From the IMG/VR virus record IMGVR_UViG_3300047157_000150: a stretch of DNA of 64,000 bases; one strand, written 5' to 3'. Position numbers and translations under genes: made by a program. This DNA comes from an uncultured virus (IMG/VR IMGVR_UViG_3300047157_000150) (Duplodnaviria > Heunggongvirae > Uroviricota > Caudoviricetes). Below are positions 6,730-64,000 of the stretch, piece after piece. The notes beneath the pieces are model-generated. The model searched no databases and was not told the origin of the DNA. It saw nothing but the letters and a program-made list of their open reading frames with translations. Each line of letters begins with the position of its first letter. Position 1 is the stretch's first letter.

Positions 6730-6764
6730 TTAAATGACACTAAGCACAAAGGATTTAATGGCAA

Positions 6765-44442: not shown

Positions 44443-44463
44443 ATTAATCACCTTAAAAATAAG

Positions 44464-44547
44464 TGGCGGGGGTGGGATTCGAACCCACGAAGCAATATGC
44501 ACCGGAATTTAAGCCCGGCCCCTTTGACCATGCTGGGGGACCCCGCC
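44464..44547 (-). tRNA. tRNA-Leu(TAA)
   Basis: Acceptor GGCGGGG/CCCCGCC, loop CTTAAAT, long variable arm, GTTCGAATC. Confidence 0.92.
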
Positions 44548-45256: not shown

Positions 45257-45363
45257 TTTTTTAGTTAATGTCCAACTAACAGGGCTGAATTTACCTTAAA
45301 CCTGCTCACCTCTACCACCTTACCTCTAAAGTGGCTGTTGGGTATTCGTCGGACTTAAATAAG

Positions 45364-45438
45364 TGGACAATATCGGATTTGAACCGATGGTCGCTCGGTT
45401 ATGAGCCGAGTGCATTAACCATACTATGCTAATTGTCC
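45364..45438 (-). tRNA. tRNA with CAT anticodon (Ile2-like, or elongator Met)
   Basis: Acceptor GGACAAT/ATTGTCC; arm CTCGG-CTCATAA-CCGAG; no initiator features. Confidence 0.88.
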
Positions 45439-45440
45439 GT

Positions 45441-45515
45441 TGGCGGGCATATCAGGAATCGAACCCGAATCTCCGGCTTAGAAGGCCAGAATGCTATCCA
45501 TTACACCATATGCCC
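45441..45515 (-). tRNA. tRNA-Arg(TCT), CCA encoded
   Basis: Acceptor GGGCATA/TATGCCC, loop CTTCTAA, GTTCGATTC, ends GCCA. Confidence 0.92.
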
Positions 45516-49422: not shown

Positions 49423-49733
49423 AGAATAATTAGTAATATGATTAATTTACAAAATAAACCAAAGTGAATTTTAATGTTGGCAATCTGTGTGATATTATTC
49501 AAACATTGGTTGTTGGTGTGCTTAAGATTGTCAATACTGCTTGAGGGGCGGAATCGCTTATAAAGCATCGGAAGATGTAGTGGAGCATACTAGGTGTATT
49601 AAATAAACTAAGTGTGCCGAGCAACACCTATATTAGTTTTAGTTATTTTACAACCATATGGTAATAGTAATTTGTATTATACCTCATAATACTAAAGACC
49701 AAATATCATATCACTCGAAGGAGGTTAAGCATT

Positions 49734-50357
49734 ATGTCAAAAAAAGAAATAACAAATGATGAATGGAATGCTTGGGCTGGGGATGTGCGAACATTCCTTG
49801 ACCAAGACTTAGAAGAGGTGTTGAGCGCAACTCAACAAATGATGGAAGCAAACGGAGAAGGCGAAGATTTCGATAGTGAAGAACTTGAAGAAAATTGGGA
49901 AGAAATGCAAGCCGCTCTTTCTGCTGGTGACCGTCGAGCAAAGAAGCGACAACTTCGAAAGAATGTTTTGTCCAATCATGGGCGAGGTTTCTTTGGATGG
50001 CCTAAGCGACAGGGTGGAGGAAAACCAACTCCTCTTTTCCAGCAAGTTGTTTTGGGTCAAGCCGATGCAATTTACGAAGAAGCCTATGGTGCTTTTTGGG
50101 ATGTTTTGGCAACTCATGGTGCTGAACACCTTGAAATGACCCGTTCATCTTCAAAAGATGGCGGAACTGACGGCCAAACCTACGGAACTCGTGACAATTT
50201 TGTTAAGGTTCGTGTGGTTTCCAAGAATACCTCGCTTAAGGGTGACATTCGTGAAGGACTTTGGCTCAATGCCAACGACCCTGAAGTGTTTGCCCTTTCT
50301 TCACCTTTGACACGCCCATATGTGCCGAAGGCTGCAAAGAAGGGTGACTCGGAATGA
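49734..50357 (+). CDS. Hypothetical, probably early protein
   Basis: SD GGAGGT; downstream of palindrome-AATTTGTA site. Confidence 0.75.
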   Translation: MSKKEITNDEWNAWAGDVRTFLDQDLEEVLSATQQMMEANGEGEDFDSEELEENWEEMQAALSAGDRRAKKRQLRKNVLSNHGRGFFGWPKRQGGGKPTPLFQQVVLGQADAIYEEAYGAFWDVLATHGAEHLEMTRSSSKDGGTDGQTYGTRDNFVKVRVVSKNTSLKGDIREGLWLNANDPEVFALSSPLTRPYVPKAAKKGDSE

Positions 50358-50386
50358 GAGTCTTCTTCAATGAAGACGAAGAATGA
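50354..50386 (+). CDS. Micro-ORF MRVFFNEDEE
   Basis: ATGA overlap, SD GGTGA; member of five-copy family. Confidence 0.55.
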   Translation: MRVFFNEDEE

Positions 50387-50622
50387 GTAAAATCATTCTC
50401 CGGGGCCAATTGTGAATATTCACTAAAGTAGAAGTAAACTACTATCGTTAAACGCACACGGGAGTTACGGATTCTTCCAAATTAAACAAAAATCCACCTT
50501 TTTTTACTTAGGGTATTCCATACAAATTATTAGAGTACCATATGGTAAGCGAAAATTTGTAAAGCACCTCATATACCTTTGAACCTAAGATTACCTTGCC
50601 CACAGCGGCAGGAGAACAAAAT

Positions 50623-50970
50623 ATGCAAATTGATGAAAATGCAATTGTAGCGAAGGCCAACAAACGGCTTGAAACAGCAGACGAGGAAGACACTGAGGAA
50701 ATTCAGTGGCTACTTTCTCGAATTGACAAAAGTGAGGGACAACGCCGGTTGAAAAACTGCGCTACCCTCGCAACCTACCTCAAAGAGGTCCGTGTCAAGG
50801 TTGTTTTGACTGATGAACAGGTTGCCGTTGCTTTCAGTGACAGTACAACGCTTCACGCACTTTTAAACAAGTACGAAGGTGTATCAATCCCTCGTACTGA
50901 GGGCAGAAGTCAAGAAGCACTTCAAGCAAACATTGAGGCCCACATGAAAGCATCCGAAAAGGGTGTTTGA
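50623..50970 (+). CDS. Hypothetical, probably early protein
   Basis: SD GGAGA then MQIDENAIV. Confidence 0.7.
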   Translation: MQIDENAIVAKANKRLETADEEDTEEIQWLLSRIDKSEGQRRLKNCATLATYLKEVRVKVVLTDEQVAVAFSDSTTLHALLNKYEGVSIPRTEGRSQEALQANIEAHMKASEKGV

Positions 50971-50997
50971 ATGTCCTTCAATGAAGACGAGGAGTGA
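50971..50997 (+). CDS. Micro-ORF MSFNEDEE
   Basis: ATG abuts upstream stop, SD GGGTG. Confidence 0.55.
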   Translation: MSFNEDEE

Positions 50998-51035
50998 TTT
51001 TTCACTCAAAAGGTCTTAACCACCTTCCTACGGGA

Positions 51036-51083
51036 AGGAGAGCCGCCCCCTTACCTTCTTTGGAGGGTTTGGGGGCCATTTTT
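51036..51083 (+). terminator. Hairpin plus T-tract
   Basis: GCCCCC...GGGGGC followed by ATTTTTT. Confidence 0.55.
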
Positions 51084-51162
51084 TAAGGATGTTTCACCAA
51101 CAAATTCTAAAATTACACATCCATATGGTTCATGCGTTAGCAGAATATGAGCCGCAGGGGGT

Positions 51163-51192
51163 GTGAAAGTGTTTAACGAAGACGAAGAGTGA
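51163..51192 (+). CDS. Micro-ORF (M)KVFNEDEE or (M)FNEDEE
   Basis: GTG starts at 51163/51169 after GGGGGTG. Confidence 0.45.
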   Translation: MKVFNEDEE

Positions 51193-51273
51193 ACTTGACT
51201 CCTAACTTTCCTTACCATATGGTAAGAATAATTTGTATGATACCCTATCTACCCAAAACCGAATTTTCATATC

Positions 51274-51447
51274 ATGTTTTGGAAAAAGCAAGAGCCGAAG
51301 TTCGTAATCAAAGTTAAACAGAACCGCTACGAAAAGTTCATCATTGACGAACTACGAGTAAGCGCAGATACTCAAGAAGAACTTGAAAAAGAACTCATTT
51401 TAGCCTTGAAACAAATCACTCAACAACTTCAGGAGATGAACGCATGA
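51274..51447 (+). CDS. Hypothetical 57-aa protein (not in ORF track)
   Basis: MFWKKQEPKFVIKVKQNRYEKFIIDELRVSADTQEELEKEL...; no SD, possibly leaderless. Confidence 0.65.
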   Translation: MFWKKQEPKFVIKVKQNRYEKFIIDELRVSADTQEELEKELILALKQITQQLQEMNA

Positions 51448-51641
51448 TGAACATTGGCCCTGTTGCACCTTTAGGTCATGGCTTTGTTGAAAAGCCATAT
51501 ACTAATTGTAAATGGTGTAAAGCAGACCTTGACCCAAACCAACACATGATGTATTATTGTGATACCGCTTGTTACTTTTCTCAAAATAAAACAGGTGAAT
51601 TAATTCAAACGCATTATGTCGCAAGGGAGGAAGAAGAATGA
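51444..51641 (+). CDS. Treble-clef-like zinc finger protein
   Basis: CKWC...YCDTAC. Confidence 0.6.
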   Translation: MMNIGPVAPLGHGFVEKPYTNCKWCKADLDPNQHMMYYCDTACYFSQNKTGELIQTHYVAREEEE

Positions 51642-51865
51642 ATACAGATTTAGAAGATACAGCAAGAAAGGTAGAAATGTCCGTACATGAGGTTCTCGCT
51701 TTTATGAGTAAAGAAGAACTCATTGATAAAATTGTGGAATATATGCAAGGGTGGAACAAGGTCGCACTTGTAGATTTCTTAGGAGAAGAAGTCTATGGTG
51801 ACGATTCTGCACCAGCCTTACTTGAGGAAATTATTAAGGCTCATCGAATTAACCCCTTTGATTAG
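51638..51865 (+). CDS. Hypothetical acidic protein
   Basis: Coupled ORF, SD GGAGG. Confidence 0.6.
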   Translation: MNTDLEDTARKVEMSVHEVLAFMSKEELIDKIVEYMQGWNKVALVDFLGEEVYGDDSAPALLEEIIKAHRINPFD

Positions 51866-52244
51866 GGAAATGACGCGAGTGGTGGAGGGTGGAAAAGTAA
51901 GGATTAATTGGTTATTAATTCGCATAGGTACTTGTTTTTAGAACTTTAAAATCTATGGATTATAAAAGGATTATCTGTCCTATGATACTGACCAACCTAA
52001 AAGACGATTGGGTGAGAGGCCCAAAACCTTTTCAATTGCAGGTTTATCCCGTAAAAATACTACAACTTGTTGGCTCGTTTTTCGTATCACTGAAAACTCG
52101 GATTAAAAGATGGCGGCTGTGAAAGGTCGGTCTTTGGTATTTACCTGCGTCCCTTTTTACTTTTTTTTCATTAGGGTAGTTATACAAATTATAGACTACC
52201 ATATGGTAGGCGATAGCATTCTACCCTCGGTAGGGGTGAAAAAA

Positions 52245-52268
52245 TTGTTTAACGAAGATGAAGAGTGA
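52245..52268 (+). CDS. Micro-ORF (M)FNEDEE; also in frame with ATG at 52203
   Basis: TTG after GGGGTGA. Confidence 0.45.
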   Translation: MFNEDEE

Positions 52269-52370
52269 TTCTATCACTTCATTTTTTCTTACCATATGGT
52301 AATATGCGGAACAATAAGGTCCGGTACAATATACCCCCCCGTGAGGTAATTGCTAATAAAGGATTTTTTG

Positions 52371-53267
52371 ACCCACCCACTAACCGCCCTAATCCTTTAT
52401 TATTAATACCATATGGTAAGGAACAAAGTGACGCAACCTGAGATTAAAGACACTTCGTTGTGAAATGTACTCGGCAGAAATCAAAAATAATTTTAACCCA
52501 CCCTCTAACCACCCAATTATCTTTAATTTCCTTGAGACATTTAATCTTGAACCATATGGTAAGGAAACATAATGTTTTTTATGTTGAGCGAAAAGGAATG
52601 TATGCGAAGACTAATACATTCTTTGAGCGGTAGGGCTATCAGCCCAATAGAAAGCGTTAGTATTTCGCAACCTGACGAGGACCGTAAAATACATCTGCTT
52701 TCTGGTAGAGATTTTAACCCACCCTCGAACCACCCAATCTCTACCAGACGCACAGTATTTTACTTTGCTTCGCAACCATATGGTAATAATAATGAACAAG
52801 GAGTTAGAGAGTATTCACTGAACAATACTCTCTACGACGCTGTGAGTATATATCCTTAACTAAATTTACTAAGGAATTTTAACCCACCCTCGAACCTCCC
52901 TTCCATATGGTAAGGAAGTATGACGCAACCTGAAAGGTTCGTCGGCTTCGCCACTACAAGAAAAATATTAACCCTCCCTCAACCACCCTATTTTTCTTGT
53001 AAGTCTACGCCTCCTTACCATATGGTACAATATCGAGCAAGGCGAGGAAAATTAGCAGGAACTGTTTTGACGAGACAGCGTTAGTTTATGTGCCTTAAAA
53101 AAAATAAAAATTAAGATACATTTACCCACCCTCGAACCACCCGTATCATATGGTTGTACTTGGCGTGACATGTAAATGTATAGCCAAATCAGTACACCCC
53201 ACCTATATATAAGGTTTGAAAAACTAAACTTTAATATGATATTGTCTTTCCCACCCTCTAACCACCC
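52371..53267 (+). repeat. Seven direct copies of ACCCACCCTC(G/T)AACCACCC
   Basis: At 52371, 52496, 52717, 52882, 52971, 53124, 53249. Confidence 0.95.
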
Positions 53268-53346
53268 ACACTATCAGACAAAAGTTTACTTTTTCGTCTA
53301 TTGACATAGAACCATATGGTATGAAATTTGTTATTACCCCGACCTA

Positions 53347-53370
53347 AAGAAAAGGGCCGAAGCCCCCTTC
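53347..53370 (-). terminator. Hairpin plus T-tract
   Basis: GAAGGGGGC-TTCG-GCCCTTTTCTT on - strand after the micro-ORF. Confidence 0.65.
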
Positions 53371-53374
53371 TTGT

Positions 53375-53398
53375 TTATTCTTCATCTTCATTCAGCAT
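53375..53398 (-). CDS. Micro-ORF MLNEDEE
   Basis: TGATG overlap with upstream gene, SD GGTGA, terminator follows. Confidence 0.55.
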   Translation of the reverse strand: MLNEDEE

Positions 53399-53538
53399 CA
53401 GTAGTCACCTTCAATAATAACAGCCTTAATTTGACCCTCTTCTTTCAGTTCTTCATAACAGCCTCTACAAAGGTTCCCAAATTCCGGTAATGTCATAATC
53501 ACCTTTGTTGAGCCACATTCATATCCTTCACATTTCAT
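53398..53538 (-). CDS. 46-aa zinc finger protein (not in ORF track)
   Basis: MKCEGYECGSTKVIMTLPEFGNLCRGCYEELKEEG... Confidence 0.6.
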   Translation of the reverse strand: MKCEGYECGSTKVIMTLPEFGNLCRGCYEELKEEGQIKAVIIEGDY

Positions 53539-53657
53539 GGTTCTCCAGCCCCATCTAGTTCTACTGTTGCTTCAACCCAACATGGGGTGCATAGACCATC
53601 AGTTTCAACTTTATCATCACACGACAGTTCAATAGTACACATCTTACACTTTGACAT
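53535..53657 (-). CDS. 40-aa zinc finger protein
   Basis: MSKCKMC...LCTPCW. Confidence 0.55.
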   Translation of the reverse strand: MSKCKMCTIELSCDDKVETDGLCTPCWVEATVELDGAGEP

Positions 53658-54115
53658 GGTATTATCATAAATCAAAACACCATAAGGTAGTTCACAAATT
53701 TTCCTTACCATATGGTTCACTTTGGGAATTTTTTTATTTAAAAAACATTAAATACGCAAAGCCTCTATTTATTTTTATGAAAGACTTTATGAAACCGGCT
53801 ATGCGCCAACACAAAAATACCTTATATTTGCCCTCAATGTGGGCATTAATGGATGAATTTGATAAATTATTATTCATATGGGACCAATTTGACCAACTTT
53901 GGCGCAACTCATACCCCCCTCCAGCAAAAAATCAAGAAGAATTAAGTATTTTACTTGCTCATATGGCCGAAACTCGCCAAAACTGTAAAACTTTATATAG
54001 ACATTGCGAATTAGACTGTAATAGTTGGAGTGCATTACAAGATTTACCTTTGGATAACCTCGTAATTCGCCAAAAGGGGAATACACTTGACAAAGAAGAC
54101 TCAAATAAGAAATAA
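53651..54115 (+). CDS. Hypothetical protein (start likely near 53780-53800)
   Basis: ORF track; 5' part overlaps repeat site. Confidence 0.4.
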   Translation: MTWYYHKSKHHKVVHKFSLPYGSLWEFFYLKNIKYAKPLFIFMKDFMKPAMRQHKNTLYLPSMWALMDEFDKLLFIWDQFDQLWRNSYPPPAKNQEELSILLAHMAETRQNCKTLYRHCELDCNSWSALQDLPLDNLVIRQKGNTLDKEDSNKK

Positions 54116-54310
54116 AGTAAGGCGAAAAAAGGGTGAACCAAGTAAAAAGACTGAAAAACTAAGACCTAATAAACCAAATTATCAAAGAAAGAAAAGGAGA
54201 AGATAAATAATGATGAGTAATATTCGCTGGGAATGGAATAAAAAAGAAAAATTTTTTTTCGCTAGTCCCAAAAAAATTCCCGGTCATTTTTTCAACAAGG
54301 CGGTGTAATA

Positions 54311-54874
54311 ATGGGTTGGCAAGATATATTAAAAATAGAACTGAGGCCTAAAGATGTTAAGCGATTAGGAGAAAGATATGCGTTAATGGATTTGTATGAA
54401 TCTAAATTAATGACCCAAGAAGAATATGATAGATTGCCAGATATAGGAGATGGGAAAAAAATTAGCGGTAATTTACCACCAACGAGCAAAAAATCCTATC
54501 ATCTTAGATTATCAGCATTTTTAAAAGAAAATAAAGATTCTCCTATGACTATGGAATTGGAAAAATATCGTAAATTTCATTATGCGATGTATATTAGATT
54601 ACGAAGGGGGGCTGAAGCCCCAAGTCCAACCTTAGAATTATTTCGTGTGTCAGGAGTGGGCTACTCTCCGGGAAAAAGATTAACCCGAAAAAACAGAAAC
54701 CCAAAAGGTCCATCGAAATATACCCCAGTTTCCCAAATCATTGTTGATTATTTTACACTCTATAACCGTAAGTTTGGCCGTAATCCCACTTTACAAGAAA
54801 TAGCAAATGAAGAGGATAGACCCCTTACAGTAGATGAAATTGAATCGTTTAAAAGATATTCACAGGGTAGGTGA
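54311..54874 (+). CDS. W-tag protein, basic
   Basis: Starts MGWQDILK. Confidence 0.7.
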   Translation: MGWQDILKIELRPKDVKRLGERYALMDLYESKLMTQEEYDRLPDIGDGKKISGNLPPTSKKSYHLRLSAFLKENKDSPMTMELEKYRKFHYAMYIRLRRGAEAPSPTLELFRVSGVGYSPGKRLTRKNRNPKGPSKYTPVSQIIVDYFTLYNRKFGRNPTLQEIANEEDRPLTVDEIESFKRYSQGR

Positions 54875-54879
54875 TTAAA

Positions 54880-55584
54880 ATGGGTTGGCAAGATATATTA
54901 AAATCAGCAGCGAGTGATTATGATAATCTTTTAGACAAATTAGTAGATAATGTTCATTTTTTTAACCCTGATATAGAAAGAAGTGTAATTGAAGGACCAT
55001 ATATAAGGACACGCGACGACAAAACATATTTGGTTACAAATATTCTAAACCCGTTAATAAAAACCTTAGAGTTTATGAGGGCCGCTAAGGATGATTTAGA
55101 ATTTCGTCAGCGTTCTGAGGTTAACGCAACTGTTGAATATAATTTTGAAATGTATGGATTAAAATGTTCTATTGTTTTTGATATTCATACATTAGGTGTA
55201 ATTGCCAGAGACAATCATATTAAAATAGGAAAAAATCTCAAAGTATGTGTGAGGCCCAGAGGAACTATGACAAAGGGGGATTTTTTAACTACCTTAGTTC
55301 TTGGAATAAGAAGTAATGCTATCCCTAATATAATGAAATTTGTTGCTTATACTTTGGAGACTGGTTTTCTGTATGGACCAGCCCGTAATAAGTTGAACAT
55401 TATTTATGATTACGATGAAGAAGAGTATAAAATTGCATATGTTGAATATTTAATAGAATCTGAAAAGGTAACCGGCGACGAAGAGGATAGATGGGCGAAA
55501 ATCCTAAATCAGGTTCATATTGCGTCCTTAGATTCATTCATGTTAGAACAGGGAGTACCAAAAGAGGTTTTAGGGAAGTGGTAA
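54880..55584 (+). CDS. W-tag protein with C...GD motif
   Basis: Starts MGWQDILK; KVCVRPRGTMTKGDFLTTL. Confidence 0.7.
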   Translation: MGWQDILKSAASDYDNLLDKLVDNVHFFNPDIERSVIEGPYIRTRDDKTYLVTNILNPLIKTLEFMRAAKDDLEFRQRSEVNATVEYNFEMYGLKCSIVFDIHTLGVIARDNHIKIGKNLKVCVRPRGTMTKGDFLTTLVLGIRSNAIPNIMKFVAYTLETGFLYGPARNKLNIIYDYDEEEYKIAYVEYLIESEKVTGDEEDRWAKILNQVHIASLDSFMLEQGVPKEVLGKW

Positions 55585-55585
55585 T

Positions 55586-55936
55586 ATGGATTGGCGAAAT
55601 AAATTAAAAAAGGATATTGTTTCTCATACCGCCTTAACAACAGGTGTTGAACCAAAGGGTGCTTTTAAAATAGACGAAAGCCGTATAGTAGAAATTATGG
55701 GAAACTATTTGGAAGAATACCGTAAAGAAATAACACCTTATCATTTGTGGAAAACTATGGTTAAGGAATACGGTAAAACTCTTAGGTCAGAAGTGGAAGA
55801 AATTATACGGGTAAGTCCAAACACTACAATAAGACAGGCTTTAAAGGAAGTTCACACAAGAAAGAGATGGTTAAAGTTTATTTTAAAATACCAAACTACC
55901 GATAAGGTAAAAAGATTGACGAGGAGGAAAGAATAA
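55586..55936 (+). CDS. W-tag protein
   Basis: Starts MDWRNKLKK. Confidence 0.65.
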   Translation: MDWRNKLKKDIVSHTALTTGVEPKGAFKIDESRIVEIMGNYLEEYRKEITPYHLWKTMVKEYGKTLRSEVEEIIRVSPNTTIRQALKEVHTRKRWLKFILKYQTTDKVKRLTRRKE

Positions 55937-56331
55937 TGGGATGGTTTGATATTCTTAAGGCTGGACAATGTTATCAATCAGCATACGATTATGTTTTTAA
56001 TGAATATATGAAGGATAATAAAACTAGCGTTCTTCTTGTTCACGCTAATGTTACAGGCACAGGTGGGGAAGTAGTTGATTGTCAATATGGACACGCTTTT
56101 GTTCTTGATGGGGATATGGTAATAGACACTGAAACAAATGTTAGAATGCCTTATGAGCGTTATGTAGATTTAGGTCAAGTCGTTGATGAAGTAATATATT
56201 CAGCGATGGAAGCACAGCAATACGCATTAGGTTCAGGTCATTATGGTCCGTGGCATGATGGTTTAGTTACTCCCGATGTATTAGAAGAAATTAAATTGGA
56301 CATAAAATATATGAAGGAGATGGGATATTGA
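55936..56331 (+). CDS. W-tag protein, transglutaminase/papain-like Cys-His-Asp fold
   Basis: MGWFDILK-AGQCYQSA...LVHA...GHAFV...VID. Confidence 0.6.
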   Translation: MGWFDILKAGQCYQSAYDYVFNEYMKDNKTSVLLVHANVTGTGGEVVDCQYGHAFVLDGDMVIDTETNVRMPYERYVDLGQVVDEVIYSAMEAQQYALGSGHYGPWHDGLVTPDVLEEIKLDIKYMKEMGY

Positions 56332-58001
56332 GTTGGCGAGATAAACTAGTAAAAGCAGACTCGAATGAAAAGGAAAAAAAAGACCTCTTTAAAAATCTAA
56401 GAGATGAATTTGAAAAAAATGGATTTAACATTTTTGTACCTAAAAGCGTATTTAGTTTCTATACTTATATAGATATTGGGGGTCAAGGTCTACCTTTGAT
56501 ACAAGATAGAATTTTTCCCCAGCAAGTCGCAGACAACCACTCCGATTCCTTAAAATTTTCTGACGAATTTGTAAAAAAATATGTAGATTCATTTTTAAGG
56601 TCAATGCAATTTCTCAAAGGAGTTACATCAAGTGAAGGGGTGACGGTTAATAAAAATTTCAAAAAAGACTCCAAAGAGATGGAAGGTTTTGATGTAGTTG
56701 GAAAATCAGGTGTTAAATATTTTGTACGAACAGACAGAACTAAACAATCAAGATGTAGTGAAGTTTATGTAGGAAAACGAAAAGATATTTTGTGCATTGA
56801 AATGGAGAACCGCACATTACCAATTGGTGATAATATAGCGAGTCTTATAAGTGTGTTATTGGAAGATAATAACCCCGCTTTAATTGGTTCTGAAGAATCC
56901 TCCGATGAACAAGAACCTCTACTCGAAGGTTTAAGAGATGTTGTTCGTGGTGGTGGTAGTTATAAATGTATTCTTTGTGAAACTGAAAATTATGCAACTG
57001 TTAAAGATACTAACGAAGATGACATCTTTTCTTGTAAAGAGTGCGGCGTAGAAAGTATTTTGACAATTACTTATGAACCTTTAATGTCAATTTACCAAGA
57101 TGACTTAAGGTTACAAATATTAAATGATTCTGGGGAAAGGACATTTATTGATGATTTAAGGGGTTATAACAGTATATTTAATTATCATGGTAAAACTGTT
57201 GATGGTGTTGAAGTAGATTTTATTAAGAGAACACAAACCGGTTACCCAAACTCTGCTATTCAATATTTAACTATGGAAAAAGATGGAGATGGTAAAATCG
57301 GAATCTTGGGTTATTTATCATCAACCGAAAAAATAGAGGACGCAAAAATTTTATCAGATGAATATGGTCTTTTGGTGGAATTAGATAAGGGTCAGATAGC
57401 GAAAGGTAGTCCAATTTATAACGCTGAAAATCTAAGAGAATTAATGCCTAGATATAAAGATTTCAGTTTATTTACTAACACTACTATTAAGGGTTTTTTA
57501 CAAAACACCTATCTGGAAACCGGAGCAAGAATGTCTCAATTTCTAGAACTTATACATAAAATACACGGAACTGCTATTCTTGGTTTGGCAGTTGAAACTG
57601 TATATGATATAGAACCAAATTACGATATTTCTAAAATTAAAGAAGACACAAATATGCTTAATTTAAGTTGGGATAATGCTGTATTAAATGGAAATTATGA
57701 ATTAATTCAAGGGAAGCCTGATGATAGTGCATATGAGTTCTACAAACAGAAGGACTTAAGTAGTAAATATGACCTCCCATTAATTATGAAGTGGGAAGAT
57801 TACCTCAAAAAATCAGGTGACAATGTAGATGATTGGGAATCTGCATTAAAGTCATTTATCGCTGATGGTAAAAAATTGGGAATACCCTTGTCAGTAATGG
57901 AATTATTAAAGTTGGCTAAAGAAGCAACGACTTCGCAAAGCGAAGGTTTTGAAACATTACATCGCCCTACCTTCAGTGAGGAGGAAGAGGAAGATGTTTG
58001 A
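56328..58001 (+). CDS. Large multidomain W-tag protein (C...GD domain, zinc ribbon, internal tags)
   Basis: MSWRDKLVK; LCIEMENRTLPIGDNIASLISVLLED; CILC..CKEC; MKWEDYLKK. Confidence 0.7.
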   Translation: MSWRDKLVKADSNEKEKKDLFKNLRDEFEKNGFNIFVPKSVFSFYTYIDIGGQGLPLIQDRIFPQQVADNHSDSLKFSDEFVKKYVDSFLRSMQFLKGVTSSEGVTVNKNFKKDSKEMEGFDVVGKSGVKYFVRTDRTKQSRCSEVYVGKRKDILCIEMENRTLPIGDNIASLISVLLEDNNPALIGSEESSDEQEPLLEGLRDVVRGGGSYKCILCETENYATVKDTNEDDIFSCKECGVESILTITYEPLMSIYQDDLRLQILNDSGERTFIDDLRGYNSIFNYHGKTVDGVEVDFIKRTQTGYPNSAIQYLTMEKDGDGKIGILGYLSSTEKIEDAKILSDEYGLLVELDKGQIAKGSPIYNAENLRELMPRYKDFSLFTNTTIKGFLQNTYLETGARMSQFLELIHKIHGTAILGLAVETVYDIEPNYDISKIKEDTNMLNLSWDNAVLNGNYELIQGKPDDSAYEFYKQKDLSSKYDLPLIMKWEDYLKKSGDNVDDWESALKSFIADGKKLGIPLSVMELLKLAKEATTSQSEGFETLHRPTFSEEEEEDV

Positions 58002-59118
58002 GTGGGATAAAGAAAAAGCCCTTGCCCTTCTTGAAGCATATAAAAAATTTTGGGGGCCAAGTAAAAATCCGGAATATGGCATTACAGGAAAACCTGATGC
58101 GAGTACCGGAAAAACAAATTCTAAGTCAGTTTATCAAACTGTAAAAAATCATGGCTACACGGCTAAGGGTCGTGCAAGTCAAGGAGCCTTTGTCGGAGCA
58201 GGTGCTATATTAGAAAACTTAGAAGAAATTATTGAAGAAGAAGTATTCTTAGAAGATGACTTAGATGATATTGAACAATTGTCTAAATTATTAAATACAC
58301 TTGAAACTAAAAAAGACCGCAATCCTAGAAATATTAAATTCCGCACAGTCATATCATTTGAAAAACCAAAAGGTGAAGATGATGAACCTAAGATTAAAAG
58401 AGGGTTTGTTCGAGGTCATTTTTTAACTCCCGCCTATTGGGAATTTAGACAGTGGAAGGCAAAAAAGGATGGTGCATCTTTCCCTTCTAAAAAACCCGAC
58501 CCTAAATGGACAGCACTTCCTAAAGGTAGTGGGGATGGACCCATAGGAATCGCAGAACCTCCACTTTGGCAAGCAATTTTTTCTAAAGAAAATAGTCTAA
58601 GAAAACTTATTGATGATATTAAAGTTCTCATGGAAAAGCAACAGCCTGAAGAAGTTAGCATAGATATTAATGCAAATTTGGGTCCTAATTCAGCAGAAGC
58701 CTTGTCTAATATATCAGGAGTACAAAGGGCAATTAAGGAAGTTATGGGAAATGCTAATATTTACGCCCGCAATTCAAAGGTAGTAATTAAGGATAGATTG
58801 AATCAGGCTATATCTCAAAAACAGATTTCTGTTAATCCTGCCGACCTACAAATACTTTCACAAAATTGCACATTGACAGTGAAAGGTGAAAAGGTAGAAT
58901 TACAAGAAATTGTTAACTATGAACAAATTACATCTTTGCAGATTAAATTTCCTAAAAATAATAAAGCATTGAATAGATTAATAAGGGCTGTAATGGGAGA
59001 AGAAATGAATACTTATGATTTATCAAGTCTCACAGGATGGGAAGGAAGTGCAGGTATTACTCTCAAACAACTTGATGCGATTAAAGCGGCTAGTAATTTA
59101 ATGAAGGTGTTAAAATGA
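57994..59118 (+). CDS. Hypothetical protein
   Basis: Start MFEWDKEK after GAGGA-rich SD. Confidence 0.65.
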   Translation: MFEWDKEKALALLEAYKKFWGPSKNPEYGITGKPDASTGKTNSKSVYQTVKNHGYTAKGRASQGAFVGAGAILENLEEIIEEEVFLEDDLDDIEQLSKLLNTLETKKDRNPRNIKFRTVISFEKPKGEDDEPKIKRGFVRGHFLTPAYWEFRQWKAKKDGASFPSKKPDPKWTALPKGSGDGPIGIAEPPLWQAIFSKENSLRKLIDDIKVLMEKQQPEEVSIDINANLGPNSAEALSNISGVQRAIKEVMGNANIYARNSKVVIKDRLNQAISQKQISVNPADLQILSQNCTLTVKGEKVELQEIVNYEQITSLQIKFPKNNKALNRLIRAVMGEEMNTYDLSSLTGWEGSAGITLKQLDAIKAASNLMKVLK

Positions 59119-59468
59119 ATAGTAGTAGGATTCCCAAAAATTTTCAAAACCGTAGTGGTGGCTGGTGGTCTTCCCTACAATCTAATGATTCAAAAAGGGT
59201 AGAAATTATAGAAGAACTATTGGATGAAGCCCAAGATAAAGAATTGTCGGAATTAGTAAATAGATTCTTAGAAAGTTATAATGAAAATGTAATGAATATG
59301 AGTGTCACTAGATTAAATACTAAAATGTATATGTTAGCATTCCATTTTACAGATATGCCTACTGCTTCAACTCTTATTTATCTCGACCCACTTGAATATC
59401 GTACAATGAATGAAGAAACTTTTAAAAGACAATTAAGGAGGATTGTTGCTCGTGCGGAAAATTCGTAA
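59115..59468 (+). CDS. Hypothetical protein
   Basis: Coupled ORF. Confidence 0.6.
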   Translation: MNSSRIPKNFQNRSGGWWSSLQSNDSKRVEIIEELLDEAQDKELSELVNRFLESYNENVMNMSVTRLNTKMYMLAFHFTDMPTASTLIYLDPLEYRTMNEETFKRQLRRIVARAENS

Positions 59469-60114
59469 GTCCTGCCCTCTATGTAATCATCCCGATAGGG
59501 ATAATTTAGAAATTGAAATTCTTGAAGGTCGTATGGAAGTAAATACTCTCGATAGGGAAGAAGGGTGGAAAGCGGGAACTACGAGAAAACATATGCAACA
59601 ACATTTGAATGCTTACCATGATGATTCGAATGATAAATGTGCCTTGTGCGTAGCAAGTAATAGAAAGGATTTGGAAGCGGCAATTGTAGACGGACATATG
59701 AAGCCGAGTAAAGTGGCCGCATATTTAGAAGTCGGTGTGGATTTAATTAATTTACATATGAAAAAGCACCTCAAACCTATCGTACAACAATCGGCGGCTT
59801 TGGATGTAGCCCGTGTAGAATTAAATGAAATTGAATTACTTTCTCAAAATGTTCAAATGCTTCAAGGTAAGATTCAACAATTTATTATAGATAACGATGA
59901 TTTAGATTTTAAGACAGTGGATTCTTTGGTAAAACTTAGTAAAGAAATTCGTGAGTCGCTAAAGTATGCGCTGGAATTTAAGGGTAAATTAGTACATAAG
60001 CGAGAGGAAACAGTGGTGATTCAACAGATTGAAGTTATACAAAAGGTTCTTATAGAAAGATACCCCGAAGTATGGACTGAGATACGAGATGATATAGCGG
60101 AGAGATTAGCATGA
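59443..60114 (+). CDS. Duplicated CxxC...HxxxH zinc/HTH protein with coiled coil (terminase small subunit candidate)
   Basis: CPLC.HPDR...HMQQH and CALC...HMKKH repeats. Confidence 0.45.
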   Translation: MLLVRKIRKSCPLCNHPDRDNLEIEILEGRMEVNTLDREEGWKAGTTRKHMQQHLNAYHDDSNDKCALCVASNRKDLEAAIVDGHMKPSKVAAYLEVGVDLINLHMKKHLKPIVQQSAALDVARVELNEIELLSQNVQMLQGKIQQFIIDNDDLDFKTVDSLVKLSKEIRESLKYALEFKGKLVHKREETVVIQQIEVIQKVLIERYPEVWTEIRDDIAERLA

Positions 60115-60302
60115 ATTGGAAAAATATACTAAAAAATAAACCCTTTTACGGGGATAAAGAATGCCCAAGATGCGGTTCAAAAATGATGACTACTTTTCCT
60201 AATAAAGCGGCTTCACTAACAGGTAAAGACGAAGTTTCATATTGTACTAAATGCGGATATACTGAAGATGAAGGCACAGAATCAATAGATAGTCCAAGAT
60301 AA
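60111..60302 (+). CDS. W-tag zinc ribbon protein
   Basis: MNWKNILK; CPRC...CTKC. Confidence 0.7.
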   Translation: MNWKNILKNKPFYGDKECPRCGSKMMTTFPNKAASLTGKDEVSYCTKCGYTEDEGTESIDSPR

Positions 60303-60314
60303 GGAGAGATTACA

Positions 60315-60587
60315 ATGAGTTGGAAAAAACAAATTAAAAAAGAAGAAATGCCCATGAATAGAATAACACAATTCTATGATGAATTAAAACAAGAAATTAC
60401 TACAAGGGGTAAAGAAGAAGTATTATCGCATAGTATGGAACAAATGGGTATTTTGAATGGTAATTCTGACCCATTCAAATTAGCGGAAAATATTTTAAAA
60501 ATGTTAAGTCCTTATTTTACAAATGCTGATGCAATTAAAATTTTAGATAAGCACCGAAATGAATATTATTCTCAAAATAAAAAATAA
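60315..60587 (+). CDS. W-tag protein
   Basis: MSWKKQIKK. Confidence 0.7.
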   Translation: MSWKKQIKKEEMPMNRITQFYDELKQEITTRGKEEVLSHSMEQMGILNGNSDPFKLAENILKMLSPYFTNADAIKILDKHRNEYYSQNKK

Positions 60588-60604
60588 ATGCAGGAGAGAT
60601 TAGC

Positions 60605-60844
60605 ATGAGTTGGAAGGTTATTCTTAAAAGTAGAGTTGAACACTTTAGACAAGAATGGCTTCAACATTATTCCGATTCAAGAAATATGTACGATGAAGAA
60701 CCGCCCGAAGTAAATGAAAATAATTTAGATGAAGTTATTCGTGAAGAAATAGACGACCAAGAATTTGTATTGACATTAGGTGGATTATCAGCAAAAGAAA
60801 AACAAGAAATAAAATTATTTATTAAAAGATTAAAGGATATTTAA
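60605..60844 (+). CDS. W-tag protein
   Basis: MSWKVILK. Confidence 0.7.
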   Translation: MSWKVILKSRVEHFRQEWLQHYSDSRNMYDEEPPEVNENNLDEVIREEIDDQEFVLTLGGLSAKEKQEIKLFIKRLKDI

Positions 60845-60856
60845 GGAGAGATTACA

Positions 60857-61186
60857 ATGAGTTGGGAAAATATATTAAAAAGAGATGTGTATGAAGGTGA
60901 CCCTAAAATGGATGAATATATGAATAAATCAGTAAGAGAATTTTATGATTGGTTTATGGCTGTAATGAGTGGAAAAAAACACCCTAAAGGTAGCGTTCAC
61001 GATAATAATTTAATGTATATTTTTATGAACCATGTCAAGAGAGCCTTTGAAGATGATAAAAGTTCAAGGGAATATCAAATCGCAAACAGAATGTTTGAAA
61101 CTTCTTTAGAAAGAGGGGACTTAGTAAATGAACTTTATGAACTAATTTCTTCAAGAATTGCTTCGGAAGATAGTCAAGTAGAATAA
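60857..61186 (+). CDS. W-tag protein
   Basis: MSWENILK. Confidence 0.7.
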   Translation: MSWENILKRDVYEGDPKMDEYMNKSVREFYDWFMAVMSGKKHPKGSVHDNNLMYIFMNHVKRAFEDDKSSREYQIANRMFETSLERGDLVNELYELISSRIASEDSQVE

Positions 61187-61200
61187 TAGGGTAGATTAGC

Positions 61201-61821
61201 ATGAGTTGGTTTGACATTCTAAAAATTAAATTCAAACCGGTAGACCGTGATAGACCTGCACCTAATATTAAACTAAGACCTGATAAAACAGCCGATGGTA
61301 CTTATGATTATAGGACTGATTCAATAAATATTTCACCTAATCCCAATGTAACTCCCGAAAAAATAGCGAACACATTAGCACATGAAACAACTCATCAAGC
61401 GCAATATAATACGGAACCAGAATTAATTGAAACAGCAAAAAAAACTTCGGCCACTTTTATAGAATTTATATCACAGATAAATAACATAGATATAGAGGTA
61501 TTAGAACATGAAGATTTTATAGCGTTGTGGAGAGAACTGCAACCCGAAATGGAAAGAAATCTTAAGATGTATTTTGAAATGCTTTTAACGATAGAAATAC
61601 AAGCATATTCAACTTCTTATAATTTAGATGATAGACAATTTAGAATTAAATTAGTAAATACTATGATACAAGATATTACTCAAAGAACAAGGGCAATTAG
61701 AAGGATTATGGAAATGAATGATGAAAGATATTCATATGTTGAAACCATACTTGTAGAACTTTTAAATCCTCTCATAGATAGAATAGCGACTTCATTTGTA
61801 AGAAGAGAGCAGGTGGAATAA
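61201..61821 (+). CDS. W-tag zincin-like metallopeptidase
   Basis: MSWFDILK; GTY...INI...TLAHETTHQAQ...EIQAY. Confidence 0.7.
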   Translation: MSWFDILKIKFKPVDRDRPAPNIKLRPDKTADGTYDYRTDSINISPNPNVTPEKIANTLAHETTHQAQYNTEPELIETAKKTSATFIEFISQINNIDIEVLEHEDFIALWRELQPEMERNLKMYFEMLLTIEIQAYSTSYNLDDRQFRIKLVNTMIQDITQRTRAIRRIMEMNDERYSYVETILVELLNPLIDRIATSFVRREQVE

Positions 61822-62180
61822 TGAAGTGGCAAGACATTTTAAAATACGACGACTTACCGGCTATGTTTGAAGACCTGCGTAGAGAAATCGTAGAATACTT
61901 TCCACCTCGTTATATCGGTAATGTGAACCAACCAAATTCAGTTATAGGTATTATATTTAATTTAAGAGATTATTTAGAAAGTCCTATGTATTCCGAACCA
62001 AGAACTCAAGGAGTATTACGAACACTAATGAAAAGAATTGGTGAAAAGCAAGACCAATTTACAGAAGATGAGGGACATGATGAAGCCTTTGAAGATGGTA
62101 ATACTTTATTTTATGCAACTGTCGGTGGATTGATTGATAAAATTAGTGAAGCCTTAGCGGTAAGGGAGGAATATACATGA
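61821..62180 (+). CDS. W-tag protein
   Basis: MKWQDILK. Confidence 0.7.
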   Translation: MKWQDILKYDDLPAMFEDLRREIVEYFPPRYIGNVNQPNSVIGIIFNLRDYLESPMYSEPRTQGVLRTLMKRIGEKQDQFTEDEGHDEAFEDGNTLFYATVGGLIDKISEALAVREEYT

Positions 62181-62644
62181 GTTGGGAAAATATATTAAAG
62201 GTGCGAACTAATGAAGAAACACCTGAAAGATTACACGGTCAAGATACCTTTTTAGTCAACGATGATATATACAGACAAGCCGGAGGTAGAATATTAGGAG
62301 AAACCGAAGGTGATAGATTTATGGATATTGAAGATATTGAAGAAGCGATAGGTAGAAAATTAACAATTAGAGATTTTAAAAACCATCATTTGAATTGGAA
62401 AAGCAATACTAATAAAACATTATTGGATAGAGTTGGTGGATTTAGAGGTCAACAACAATTAGCAGAAAATCAAATTGCAGAAATGCTCGATGACCTGCAT
62501 AGAGGAAAACCCGTTGATTCACCCCGAATGTATTTTAATATTTTTAAGGTTTTTATGGAAATATTCGGAGATACATCTCGTCTTATCGAAGAAGTAAGAT
62601 TTGCTTTAAGAACATATATGGATATTCATAGTATAAGGGGTTGA
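62177..62644 (+). CDS. W-tag protein
   Basis: MSWENILK. Confidence 0.7.
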   Translation: MSWENILKVRTNEETPERLHGQDTFLVNDDIYRQAGGRILGETEGDRFMDIEDIEEAIGRKLTIRDFKNHHLNWKSNTNKTLLDRVGGFRGQQQLAENQIAEMLDDLHRGKPVDSPRMYFNIFKVFMEIFGDTSRLIEEVRFALRTYMDIHSIRG

Positions 62645-62648
62645 TAAT

Positions 62649-62855
62649 ATGACATGGCAAAATATACTTAAACTTGATTGGCGTGAAATGCTTGATTCTT
62701 ATATTACGGAAGACAGTTTATTTGAAAACATTTATAAACATCTTACGAACAGTCTTGGTTATAACGCACCATCGCAAGATGAGGTTATCGACTATTTAGA
62801 AGAGAATTACGAAAGACATAAATTATGGACAAACTTATGGAGTGTGAAAGAATGA
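62649..62855 (+). CDS. W-tag protein
   Basis: MTWQNILK. Confidence 0.65.
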   Translation: MTWQNILKLDWREMLDSYITEDSLFENIYKHLTNSLGYNAPSQDEVIDYLEENYERHKLWTNLWSVKE

Positions 62856-63097
62856 CATGGAAAGACGAGATTAAAAAACGAAGTTTAATGACAATGGGGC
62901 CGAGGGATTTTATTACAGCAACTCTATTTCACGATTACGGTATTACACAAGATGTAATTGAAATGGTTGTAGACAAGATTCTATTCTTTAACGCCAGCGA
63001 AGACCAATTACAAAGAGCAATGAGCCGAGCAAGTAGGGAGAAAATTTCCCCCCTTCGTGCTTTAAGTTTAATTATGATGGAAGAAAACCCCGTTTAA
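62852..63097 (+). CDS. W-tag protein
   Basis: MTWKDEIKK; ATGA overlap. Confidence 0.65.
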   Translation: MTWKDEIKKRSLMTMGPRDFITATLFHDYGITQDVIEMVVDKILFFNASEDQLQRAMSRASREKISPLRALSLIMMEENPV

Positions 63098-63112
63098 AAT
63101 TAGGTGATTATT

Positions 63113-63337
63113 ATGACATGGAAAGATATTGTAAAACAACAAGACCTTAGCGATGCCCAAAAGAGAAGTTTATCGGAAGGTGTTAAGAAAACAGGTGTTT
63201 GTCCAAGATGTAAAGAAAGTGTTGTTCTATACAGTATGTGTCCATTAAACTTGAAAGAATATCCAGCAAGACCAAGTTGCCCTATGAAGCAAAAGGAACA
63301 ATCACGAGCAAGGGGATTTCCAACAAAATTAGACTGA
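63113..63337 (+). CDS. W-tag zinc-binding protein
   Basis: MTWKDIVK; CPRC...CP...CP. Confidence 0.65.
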   Translation: MTWKDIVKQQDLSDAQKRSLSEGVKKTGVCPRCKESVVLYSMCPLNLKEYPARPSCPMKQKEQSRARGFPTKLD

Positions 63338-63346
63338 GGGATTAAC

Positions 63347-63574
63347 TTGTGGTTCGATACATTGCGTAAGAAAAGTAAGTCTCGCCGCAAGAAGGGTTCA
63401 AAACAGGCTAAGAAAAAAGGCAGAAAGAAAAAGAAATCCAAGACCAAGAAAGACGCTTGTTATCGCAAAGTAAGAAGTCGTTATAAAAAATGGCCTTCTG
63501 CCTACGCTTCCGGTGCTTTAGTCCAATGTCGTAAAAAGGGTGCGGCTAATTGGGGTAATTCAAAAAAGAAGTGA
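63347..63574 (+). CDS. W-tag highly basic protein with WPSAYASG motif
   Basis: MWFDTLRK; KKDACYRKVRSRYKKWPSAYASGALVQCRK. Confidence 0.7.
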   Translation: MWFDTLRKKSKSRRKKGSKQAKKKGRKKKKSKTKKDACYRKVRSRYKKWPSAYASGALVQCRKKGAANWGNSKKK

Positions 63575-63578
63575 TAAC

Positions 63579-64000
63579 ATGTGGCGGGAAATACTCAAGG
63601 AAGAATCCAAATGGATGAACAGTCTTTCTGCGAGTAAGCAAAAACTTCTCGATTCCGAACCTTCTTTTGAAGTAGACATTCCTAAACTTTCATTTCCCGA
63701 TAACGAAGAGGAACTACCAAAGGTTCTAAAAATCATGGAAGGTCAAGACTTAGATAAAAAAACTATTAACGACTTAGATAAAAATAACCATAAGATGTTG
63801 CTCGACATTGTTGGTGAAAAAATGTCCGAATGGGAAGATTTTATAGAAGATGTGGACATTCATACCATACGACTTAAAATGAAATACGGTAGAAAGCGAC
63901 CATATGAAATCTCGGATAAAATTAAGTCTGTGACAAATACAGACGATACACCTTCTTTTCCAAGCGGCCACGCTATTGAAGCACATGCGTTGGCTAAAGT
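63579..64000 (+). CDS. W-tag PAP2/haloperoxidase-superfamily phosphatase, runs off window end
   Basis: MWREILK; KMKYGRKRP (Kx6RP) and TPSFPSGH, read directly from the DNA. Confidence 0.8.
   Translation, partial: MWREILKEESKWMNSLSASKQKLLDSEPSFEVDIPKLSFPDNEEELPKVLKIMEGQDLDKKTINDLDKNNHKMLLDIVGEKMSEWEDFIEDVDIHTIRLKMKYGRKRPYEISDKIKSVTNTDDTPSFPSGHAIEAHALAK

Follow-up and report, generated by a model that had tools for sequence, protein, structure and literature searches.

The stretch of DNA analysed here, 64,000 nucleotides from an uncultured virus (IMG/VR record IMGVR_UViG_3300047157_000150) and hereafter called the window, encodes a set of 21 proteins that begin alike and then diverge. Their open reading frames (ORFs) all lie on the + strand and all open with M-(0 or 1 residue)-W-x-x-I-L-K, a short N-terminal leader referred to below as the tag. 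By gene content the window fits a group-B-like magrovirus. Based on sequence comparisons, we propose, at a rough probability of 0.55, that the tag serves in capsid targeting and cleavage of a fast-changing set of cargo proteins, in the manner of the capsid-targeting sequence (CTS) found on the internal proteins of phage T4.

The 21 ORFs named in the original prediction were all confirmed, at three levels of match. Fifteen carry the strict tag, defined as W-x-x-[ILVM]-[ILVM]-[KR], four match two of the last three tag positions (partial) and two are degenerate. They are listed here together with internal copies of the motif and with ORF 59115; G002, G003 and G007 are among six relatives described below, to which statements on homologues refer.

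64 to 1251, + strand: ORF 64, 395 amino acids (aa), degenerate N-terminal tag M-T-W-F-D-A-I-Y.
370 to 387, + strand: full internal tag W-Q-S-I-L-K at residue 103 of ORF 64, no Met before the tag.
18287 to 18550, + strand: ORF 18287, 87 aa, M-T-W-Q-A-I-L-K (strict), homologue in G003 only.
18999 to 19151, + strand: ORF 18999, 50 aa, M-W-K-S-I-L-K (strict), without homologue in the six relatives.
19252 to 19824, + strand: ORF 19252, 190 aa, M-S-W-F-D-I-I-K (strict).
54311 to 54874, + strand: ORF 54311, 187 aa, M-G-W-Q-D-I-L-K (strict), opens the tagged cluster.
54880 to 55584, + strand: ORF 54880, 234 aa, M-G-W-Q-D-I-L-K (strict).
55586 to 55936, + strand: ORF 55586, 116 aa, M-D-W-R-N-K-L-K (partial), without homologue in the relatives.
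55936 to 56331, + strand: ORF 55936, 131 aa, M-G-W-F-D-I-L-K (strict), without homologue in the relatives.
56328 to 58001, + strand: ORF 56328, 557 aa, TTG start, degenerate tag S-W-R-D-K-L-V.
57786 to 57809, + strand: internal M-K-W-E-D-Y-L-K, in frame in ORF 56328, about 70 residues from the C-end.
59115 to 59468, + strand: ORF 59115, 117 aa, decayed internal tag W-W-S-S-L-Q near residue 17.
60111 to 60302, + strand: ORF 60111, 63 aa, M-N-W-K-N-I-L-K (strict), zinc-ribbon-like body (Pfam).
60315 to 60587, + strand: ORF 60315, 90 aa, M-S-W-K-K-Q-I-K (partial).
60605 to 60844, + strand: ORF 60605, 79 aa, M-S-W-K-V-I-L-K (strict).
60857 to 61186, + strand: ORF 60857, 109 aa, M-S-W-E-N-I-L-K (strict).
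61201 to 61821, + strand: ORF 61201, 206 aa, M-S-W-F-D-I-L-K (strict), H-E-x-x-H body, weakly SprT-like (E = 0.0027).
61821 to 62180, + strand: ORF 61821, 119 aa, M-K-W-Q-D-I-L-K (strict).
62177 to 62644, + strand: ORF 62177, 155 aa, M-S-W-E-N-I-L-K (strict).
62649 to 62855, + strand: ORF 62649, 68 aa, M-T-W-Q-N-I-L-K (strict), kept in G002, G003 and G007.
62852 to 63097, + strand: ORF 62852, 81 aa, M-T-W-K-D-E-I-K (partial).
63113 to 63337, + strand: ORF 63113, 74 aa, M-T-W-K-D-I-V-K (strict).
63347 to 63574, + strand: ORF 63347, 75 aa, TTG start, W-F-D-T-L-R (partial), net charge +30.
63579 to 64000, + strand: ORF 63579, M-W-R-E-I-L-K (strict), runs past the window end, soluble PAP2-type phosphatase-like (E = 3e-5).

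The tag is real and non-random. A six-frame scan of the window returned 16 strict matches, all on the + strand, that are located no more than two codons from a start codon and open an ORF of 40 aa or more; ORF 55745 among them is nested and is discounted. In 50 block shuffles, matches next to a start codon averaged 1.02 and never exceeded 3. By hand count, 21 of 47 + strand genes are tagged versus 0 of 46 on the − strand (Fisher p = 5e-8), in agreement with the earlier claim that the tag is confined to the structural strand; it is not equally common at the starts of replication-strand genes. Two − strand ORFs, 26686 and 40600, also match in a relaxed scan of the window, both poorly and with GTG starts, and we take them as chance. 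Between positions 54311 and 64000, 17 of the 20 genes on the + strand bear tags, the exceptions being 57949 and 59443, which have none, and the degenerate 59115.

The same leader is found throughout the relatives of this virus. IMG/VR searches identified 26 relatives by family B DNA polymerase (PolB) and 116 by capsid protein, the closest relatives of the window being contigs of 88-96 kb. Six relatives were scanned for the tag on both strands under a relaxed rule:

G002: 92.3 kb, PolB 93% identical; 23 tags on the + strand, 0 matches on the − strand.
G003: 90.8 kb, PolB 88% identical; 22 tags on the + strand, 3 matches on the − strand.
G004: 64.4 kb (partial), PolB 60% identical; 13 tags on the + strand, 2 matches on the − strand.
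G007: 88.2 kb, PolB 63% identical; 21 tags on the + strand, 0 matches on the − strand.
G006: 94.3 kb, PolB 42% identical; 12 tags on the + strand, 1 match on the − strand.
G009: 96.1 kb, PolB 42% identical; 18 tags on the + strand, 1 match on the − strand.

Scanning related genomes, as the original prediction had proposed, thus yielded 12-23 tags in each of the six. An automated strand count, in which the − strand matches are one each in G004, G006 and G009, was significant in 7 of 7 sequences (window and six relatives). The tag consensus is the same at 42% PolB and 45% capsid protein identity (12 and 18 + strand tags); as it is unchanged across lineages, co-variation with capsid or protease sites is uninformative. 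A set of 100 unique tags was drawn from eight sequences, namely the window and seven relative records, G004 among them. In this set, the first core position is W in 100, the next is E in 27, K in 21, Q in 21 or F in 14, and the third is D in 42 or N in 20. The last three positions are I (80), V (13) or L (6), then L (79) or I (15), then K (97) or R (3). Downstream of the tag Lys there is zero conservation.

Beyond these genomes, a scan of viral contigs for the tag pattern returned at least 134 stretches, many of them on contigs of 88-97 kb. In cellular genomes the tag DNA pattern was found in at least 120 stretches; the 80 listed hold a single match each, come from scattered taxa and include none labelled Poseidoniales. 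Of the matches to a common sub-pattern, 37 of 48 in viral-contig loci open an ORF of 40 aa or more, versus 27 of 120 in cellular loci. The 68.5-kb halovirus HSTV-2 has 0 matches to W-x-x-(I/V)-L-K in all frames.

The first link to the capsid comes from the scaffold. In the relatives, a 386-residue protein encoded upstream of the capsid gene consists of a Peptidase_S78 domain (PF04586, residues 23-177, 47.4 bits against a cut-off of 21) followed by an acidic helical C-terminal half, as would be expected of a protease-scaffold fusion. Its PHROG match is a head maturation protease (E = 2.6e-18), and H70, S126 and S128, invariant in 29 sequences, are candidate catalytic residues. About 15-20 residues from the C-end, all 49 of 49 distinct protease-scaffold orthologues (44-100% identity) carry M-(S/D/N/T/E)-W-x-(E/D, Q in one)-(V/I/A/L), with M370 and W372 invariant in the protease-scaffold alignment (A1, 29 sequences). 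This scaffold-end motif corresponds to the first six residues of the tag. A search for M.W.[DE][IVLA] in five genomes, covering 187,667 residues in ORFs of 60 aa or more on either strand, gave 42 matches: 31 are N-terminal tags, 5 of 5 genomes have one at the scaffold C-end and likewise 5 of 5 at the C-end of a head protein of about 78 aa, and one lies elsewhere. The tag core thus hardly occurs outside cargo starts and two head-assembly proteins. Scaffold ends of other phages bind beneath the capsomer, close to spine helix and N-arm, according to the accessible text of PMC10275583; because the scaffold-end motif is shared, the tag may dock at the scaffold's docking place.

The second link is the residue at which the tag ends. 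The capsid protein of the relatives belongs to Pfam family SU10_MCP and begins with a very conserved stretch of about 26 residues with a Gly-rich end, followed by (N/Q/D)-(I/L)-(L/M)-K and then A, S or G; K26 is invariant and preceded by two aliphatic residues in 41 sequences (46-100% identity). The protease has an invariant K22 directly ahead of the S78 domain, preceded by I20 and L21, which are conserved to at least 90%; F171 and K175 at the domain end, where distant lineages have F-D-I-L-K, are likewise invariant. Ranked by a scoring matrix derived from the tags, this protease-end site comes among the ten best of about 27,000-28,600 internal positions, both in G006 and in G009. The 78-aa head protein has a capsid-site-like (I/L)-(L/M)-K-(A/S)-G at residues 33-36. 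Aliphatic-aliphatic-Lys is thus common to the tag end, capsid K26 and protease K22 and K175, all of them candidate cleavage sites. The original prediction had suggested looking for the motif in scaffold and capsid propeptides, and this was borne out in part: the tag core recurs at the scaffold C-end and aliphatic-aliphatic-Lys at capsid K26, but the capsid site has no Trp. In HK97, whose protease is the founding member of the S78 family, the capsid protein is cleaved within an unstructured stretch, at K103/S104 (PMC10275583, accessible text), and two phi12 sites are described as alike only in having K or R at P1 (PMC8569155, accessible text). By analogy, Lys cleavage in HK97 would fit the earlier idea that the tag is cut after its Lys.

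AlphaFold2 models of the protease-scaffold and the capsid protein had mean predicted local distance difference test (pLDDT) scores of 48.4 and 39.6, too poor to place the candidate cleavage sites or to warrant a fold search. A complex prediction for the capsid protein (A3) with the 68-aa tagged protein (A2), made without controls, scored 0.00 and counts neither way. PDB sequence searches with the A3 and A1 profiles gave weak, irrelevant matches only, and a literature look-up for mature N-termini of halovirus capsid proteins, as an anchor for Lys26, found none.

Taken together, these similarities suggest a portable leader of eight residues, M-(S/T/G/N or none)-W-x-(D/N)-I-L-K, built of two halves. 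The docking half, M-x-W-x-(D/E/N)-aliphatic, would copy the C-terminal motif of the virus's own scaffold and of the head protein of about 78 aa, so that tag, scaffold end and small head protein would share one site in the procapsid interior, most likely the conserved N-terminal arm of the capsid protein. Docking there would bring cargo under the capsid shell during assembly. The cutting half, aliphatic-aliphatic-Lys, would be the type of site recognised by the head protease, which is predicted to cut the capsid protein after Lys26, itself at the S78 borders and the cargo after the tag Lys. By analogy with T4 internal proteins, the freed cargo would remain in the head and enter the host with the DNA. 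The putative cargo consists of soluble proteins, mostly without assigned role, and would include a PAP2-type phosphatase, a very basic DUF5754 protein and a putative metallopeptidase.

Alternatively, the tag could bind a partner other than the capsid, for instance a host hub protein, a compartment for replication or assembly, or the chaperonin that the virus itself encodes, and the likeness to the scaffold would be coincidental or due to the same partner. W-x-x-aliphatic-aliphatic on one face of a helix would be a generic docking shape, and this virus encodes Cpn60, a Cpn10-like protein and a ThiF/E1-like protein. We nevertheless regard a non-capsid partner as rather unlikely: 10 of the 11 non-tag matches to the core motif in the residues searched fall in two head-assembly proteins, replication-strand genes bear no tags and the tag ends in the aliphatic-aliphatic-Lys of the candidate capsid and protease sites. 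Scaffold-end sharing and strand restriction are the strongest arguments against it.

The location of the tagged genes also bears on their role. In G002, rated 100% complete by CheckV, the tagged cluster (72.9-83.3 kb) is followed by two large proteins without assigned role, the large terminase with an HNH insert and the portal. After the portal come a 938-aa protein, a tagged 807-aa protein, the 78-aa protein, a DNA ligase, the protease-scaffold and the major capsid protein, and after the capsid gene head-tail genes including three tagged ones, tail genes and three small tagged proteins. The replication block comes next after these small genes, on the opposite strand. The tagged cluster thus leads directly into the terminase-portal-protease-capsid module, and the tagged 807-aa protein is encoded between portal and protease; an Atlas look-up of this protein gave no usable lead. 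Tags without a spacer residue (M-W-...) are found mostly in head- and tail-module genes, while M-x-W prevails in the upstream cluster (G002, G003 and window). The head-module DNA ligase (G002 6276-8381, L027; G007 63120; G004 3-1976) contains a tag-like W-(K/E)-(Q/K)-(E/Q)-(L/I)-K-x-A-Y-G at about residue 477; this inner tag has a preceding Met in G004, and the C-terminal part of about 220 aa may therefore be a separate tagged module.

The bodies behind the tags are unrelated, as had been claimed from the window, and fast-changing. After removal of the first 10 residues, 77 tagged proteins (window, G002, G003 and G004) fall into 43 BLAST clusters, with one clear case of a within-genome paralogue pair. 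For 9 of the 21 tagged proteins of the window, tblastn found no match (E <= 1e-3) in the six relatives, and those shared with G002 are 34-95% identical versus 93% for PolB. Hydrophobic segments were found in none of the tagged proteins of the window and G002. Seventy of 78 tagged proteins of the six relatives are without a Pfam family at E <= 0.001; the matches among the 78 are three PAP2-type phosphatases, four DUF5754 proteins and one weak putative metallopeptidase family below cut-off. Full-length orthologues of ORF 63579 match PAP2 at E = 1e-11 to 3e-13, and ORF 63579 is without a hydrophobic segment. The G002 orthologue of ORF 61201 matches DUF6782 at E = 2e-4, under the Pfam cut-off. A related-loci search with the 557-aa tagged protein (ORF 56328) found no relatives in viral contigs. 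The tagged PAP2-like protein of G002 (81692-82513; L031:1692-2510) carries a second, internal W-E-(D/N)-I-L-Q at residue ~195 (209 when numbered from an in-frame start further upstream). This second copy, in which the Lys is replaced by Gln, is kept in the G003 orthologue.

ORF 63347 belongs to a broader family. A DUF5754 domain is found in its relatives from G003, G004, G006 and G007, and ORF 63347 has 1,288 relatives at E <= 0.001; among the best 120 of these, 62 have a W tag within the first 25 residues and the rest differ N-terminally. One untagged relative, P0174, matches 365 phage records, nearly all of T4-like cyanophages. In three cyanophage records inspected, the coding sequences (CDSs) holding DUF5754 are labelled 'structural protein' (S-P4), 'virion protein' (S-SCSM1) and 'hypothetical protein' (Syn30), which lends weak support to a virion location. 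The idea that cyanophage DUF5754 proteins have a short N-terminal leader of their own was dropped, as the domain is internal to larger CDSs in the three records; short metagenomic forms may be partial gene calls.

A second alternative is that the tagged proteins dock in the procapsid as assembly helpers or scaffold-like parts, to be degraded by the protease and expelled before DNA packaging. They share the tag core with the scaffold C-end and a small head-module protein, scaffolds are normally removed, and several tagged genes lie within the head and tail modules. Such factors are usually conserved, yet nine of the 21 have no homologue in the six relatives and the rest diverge much faster than PolB; a PAP2 phosphatase, a putative metallopeptidase and a protein with a charge of +30 are also better suited as cargo. 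We therefore judge assembly helpers unlikely.

Selection acts on the tag peptide. In the window and three relatives, codon counts at the I, L, K, D, N, Q and E positions of the tag equal those expected from genome-wide synonymous usage, in support of the earlier argument from varied codons; in the window, tag Ile codons are ATT 7 and ATA 8, and tag Leu codons TTA 8, CTT 3, CTC 2, CTA 2 and TTG 1. Several tags are, in addition, internal and without a start codon of their own. The internal tag at residue 103 of ORF 64 is also present in the G002 orthologue (17904) and, at residue 108, in the G004 orthologue (12936), and the G003 orthologue starts exactly at it. The 183-aa protein of G002 and G003, orthologous to ORF 59115, has its tag at residue 14 (W-W-S-I-I-K and W-W-N-V-I-K, respectively), and the internal motif of ORF 56328 is kept in the orthologues G002 74985 and G003 11961. 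Background codon use and internal tags without a start codon together point to the peptide as the target of selection and disfavour an initiation or DNA-level element. High-scoring tags are also found 15-44 residues inside G006 42625 and 42281 and G009 13373 and 24143 (oriented copies), with no ATG, GTG or TTG just upstream of the Trp; these may be further internal tags or reflect unusual start codons. The five successive tagged genes at 60111-61207 are alike in the 14 bases before ATG, GGAGAGATTA(C/G)(A/C), beyond a plain Shine-Dalgarno match, which hints at local duplication or exchange of gene starts.

A leader of this kind could also act in expression or stability, by enhancing initiation, by signalling N-terminal processing or as a degron timing late proteins. 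It is located at the very start of ORFs, behind a Shine-Dalgarno-like GGAG/GGTG, and 55 of 102 tags have S, T or G as the spacer between Met and Trp; a small residue in second place favours loss of the initiator Met. This role appears quite improbable, since the choice among synonymous codons follows the genome at large, conserved internal tags have no start codon, the same core occurs near the scaffold C-end and an invariant Trp would not be expected from an effect on initiation. A DNA-level feature, i.e. a relic of common descent or a recombination linker for cassette exchange between co-infecting viruses with a functionless peptide, might be read from the similar bases before ATG at 60111-61207 and the rapid turnover of the cluster, but is very improbable given that third-position variation equals background, leaving no DNA conservation beyond what the peptide demands, that the consensus is unchanged at 42% PolB identity and that there is one paralogue pair among the bodies.

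Several points weigh against a capsid-targeting and cleavage tag. Every link to the capsid is a resemblance between sequences, and the head genes lie outside the window and were read in relatives whose PolB is 93-42% identical. The likeness is incomplete, as the last two positions of the scaffold motif are H/N-x versus L-K in the tag, the candidate cleavage sites of capsid and protease have no Trp, and tags of the DUF5754 family frequently end in Q or R plus a Lys run. Protease residues I-L-K 20-22 and F-x-x-x-K 171-175 could be conserved for folding. At least 20 cargo species, some of 450-800 aa, are many for a virus of about 92 kb, although one copy of each would amount to only about 4,300 residues. 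The tagged cluster opens a rightward gene block and could thus consist of early genes. The cyanophage DUF5754 annotations are depositors' labels, and the domain is embedded there in larger proteins.

A more far-reaching version of the capsid-targeting proposal would see the tag as a plug-and-play packaging code, in which any protein gaining the eight residues is loaded into the head and released, giving the virus 12-23 exchangeable injected proteins for use against Marine Group II archaea. We put this forward tentatively, the odds being somewhat against it.

The closest parallel is phage T4. Its internal proteins are described as diverse and defence-countering, with only the CTS conserved, which takes them to the core of the prohead and is cleaved off by the prohead protease (accessible text of PMC7411985 and PMC3012670). 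The T4 CTS (about 10-20 aa, on IPI, IPII, IPIII and Alt) is likewise one short N-terminal leader on otherwise diverse proteins, and the analogy drawn in the original prediction is supported to the extent that here, too, a single leader precedes unrelated proteins of one virus. The magrovirus leader differs in having 7-8 residues and a Lys end, in belonging to a virus with an archaeal host and in occurring on 12-23 genes per genome. Its sequence is unlike the T4 CTS. The proteases differ as well: T4 gp21 cuts after Glu, while the magrovirus protease is a Peptidase_S78 of the HK97 type. The tag thus appears to work like the CTS but is not related to it by descent.

HK97 offers a parallel for the protease. 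HK97 gp4 belongs to the same family by Pfam, and its cleavage at Lys parallels the Lys at the tag end and capsid Lys26 after the Gly-rich stretch. Work by Duda and colleagues from 2013 reportedly showed that the HK97 protease is targeted to the capsid through its C-terminal part. HK97 differs in carrying a 103-residue scaffold domain on the capsid protein and in having no known tagged cargo family, whereas in the magrovirus the scaffold-like half is fused to the protease and the candidate capsid propeptide measures only about 26 aa.

Related strategies are found in other phages. An N-terminal signal of no more than 30 residues in DarB of phage P1, whose cargo counters restriction, is sufficient to send a foreign protein into the capsid, and the P1 Dar proteins have no N-terminal consensus, versus one consensus across the magrovirus cargo (both for P1 from the accessible text of PMC9024508). 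In SPN3US and phiKZ, many head-internal proteins are processed by the prohead protease and their propeptides have been proposed to act in prohead targeting (accessible text of PMC7411985). These propeptides are long (e.g. 111 residues) and do not share one common short motif. The C-terminal coat-binding domains of the P22 and T7 scaffolds would have their counterpart in the M-S-W-x-E-aliphatic end of the magrovirus scaffold, and the tag would take on that role by mimicry. To our knowledge, no cargo family mimicking the scaffold end has been reported for P22 or T7.

Magroviruses are among the abundant viruses of the surface ocean, as stated in the accessible text of PMC5434244. They and their hosts are uncultivated, and most magrovirus genes are without assigned role; if the tag marks head cargo, at least a fifth of the structural-strand genes could be given one. 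The tag would then single out the proteins that first meet the host, and the eight-residue peptide could be tested in a heterologous procapsid system. Archaeal viruses would thereby gain their first described capsid-targeting cargo system, one that illustrates how cargo tags can arise when scaffold docking is mimicked. Virion cargo and candidate anti-defence effectors of an uncultivated virus-host system would further be predictable from sequence alone, and the tag would be a short handle by which foreign proteins could be loaded into archaeal virus capsids. Term look-ups in the available main text, supplements excluded, of three magrovirus papers (PMC5434244, PMC11706807 and PMC10160649) returned no description of the tag, and a full-text literature search for N-terminal capsid targeting in archaeal viruses, with most subscription journals outside its coverage, returned no paper.

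The window is AT-rich (GC content 0.31-0.41). Its + strand genes form two blocks, at 1-19.8 kb and from 54.3 kb to the end, and between these lies a − strand block at 20-49.6 kb. The − strand block encodes PolB, an RFC-like AAA clamp loader, Cpn60, a small Cpn10-like ORF, a ThiF-like protein, an ERCC4 nuclease, a PD-(D/E)XK nuclease, ribonucleotide reductase and a pyrimidine-dimer glycosylase, as well as three tRNAs. Individual features of this block are:

34782-35030, − strand: Cpn10-like ORF, 82 aa, 22.5 bits versus a cut-off of 21.1, E = 1.2e-4; directly upstream of the Cpn60 gene.
39221-39835, − strand: ThiF/E1-like protein, E = 1.4e-12; adjoins a zinc-ribbon and winged-helix protein in the replication block.
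44463-44547, − strand: tRNA-Leu(TAA).
45363-45438, − strand: tRNA-Met(CAT).
45441-45515, − strand: tRNA-Arg(TCT).

The accessible text of PMC5434244 gives PolB, a clamp loader, nucleases, a GroEL-type chaperonin, ribonucleotide reductase, tRNA-Leu and tRNA-Arg as group B magrovirus content and places a ligase within the structural module of magroviruses. This content is matched by PolB, the RFC-like AAA protein, Cpn60, ribonucleotide reductase, ERCC4, PD-(D/E)XK and the tRNAs of the window and by the ligase of G002. In a phage collection, the best PolB matches are haloviruses at about 25% identity, and no recognisable magrovirus record is among them. The tRNA-Met is an extra compared with the group B description, which in the accessible text of PMC5434244 names Leu and Arg only. 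Magrovirus chaperonins are expected there to function without GroES.

In the tail module, the window has broken frames relative to G002 at 1860-4206 and 8499-9503. The counterpart of a 759-aa G002 protein is spread over seven window segments in alternating frames, and that of a 2,296-aa protein has three frame switches in its first ~340 residues; these breaks are sequencing or assembly indels or decay. The stretch at 49600-54300, between the two divergent blocks, has few genes and a GC content of up to 0.41 and could be the site of an origin or of promoters. It contains a small ORF at 51274-51447, beginning M-F-W-K-K-..., which is also present in G002 and G003.

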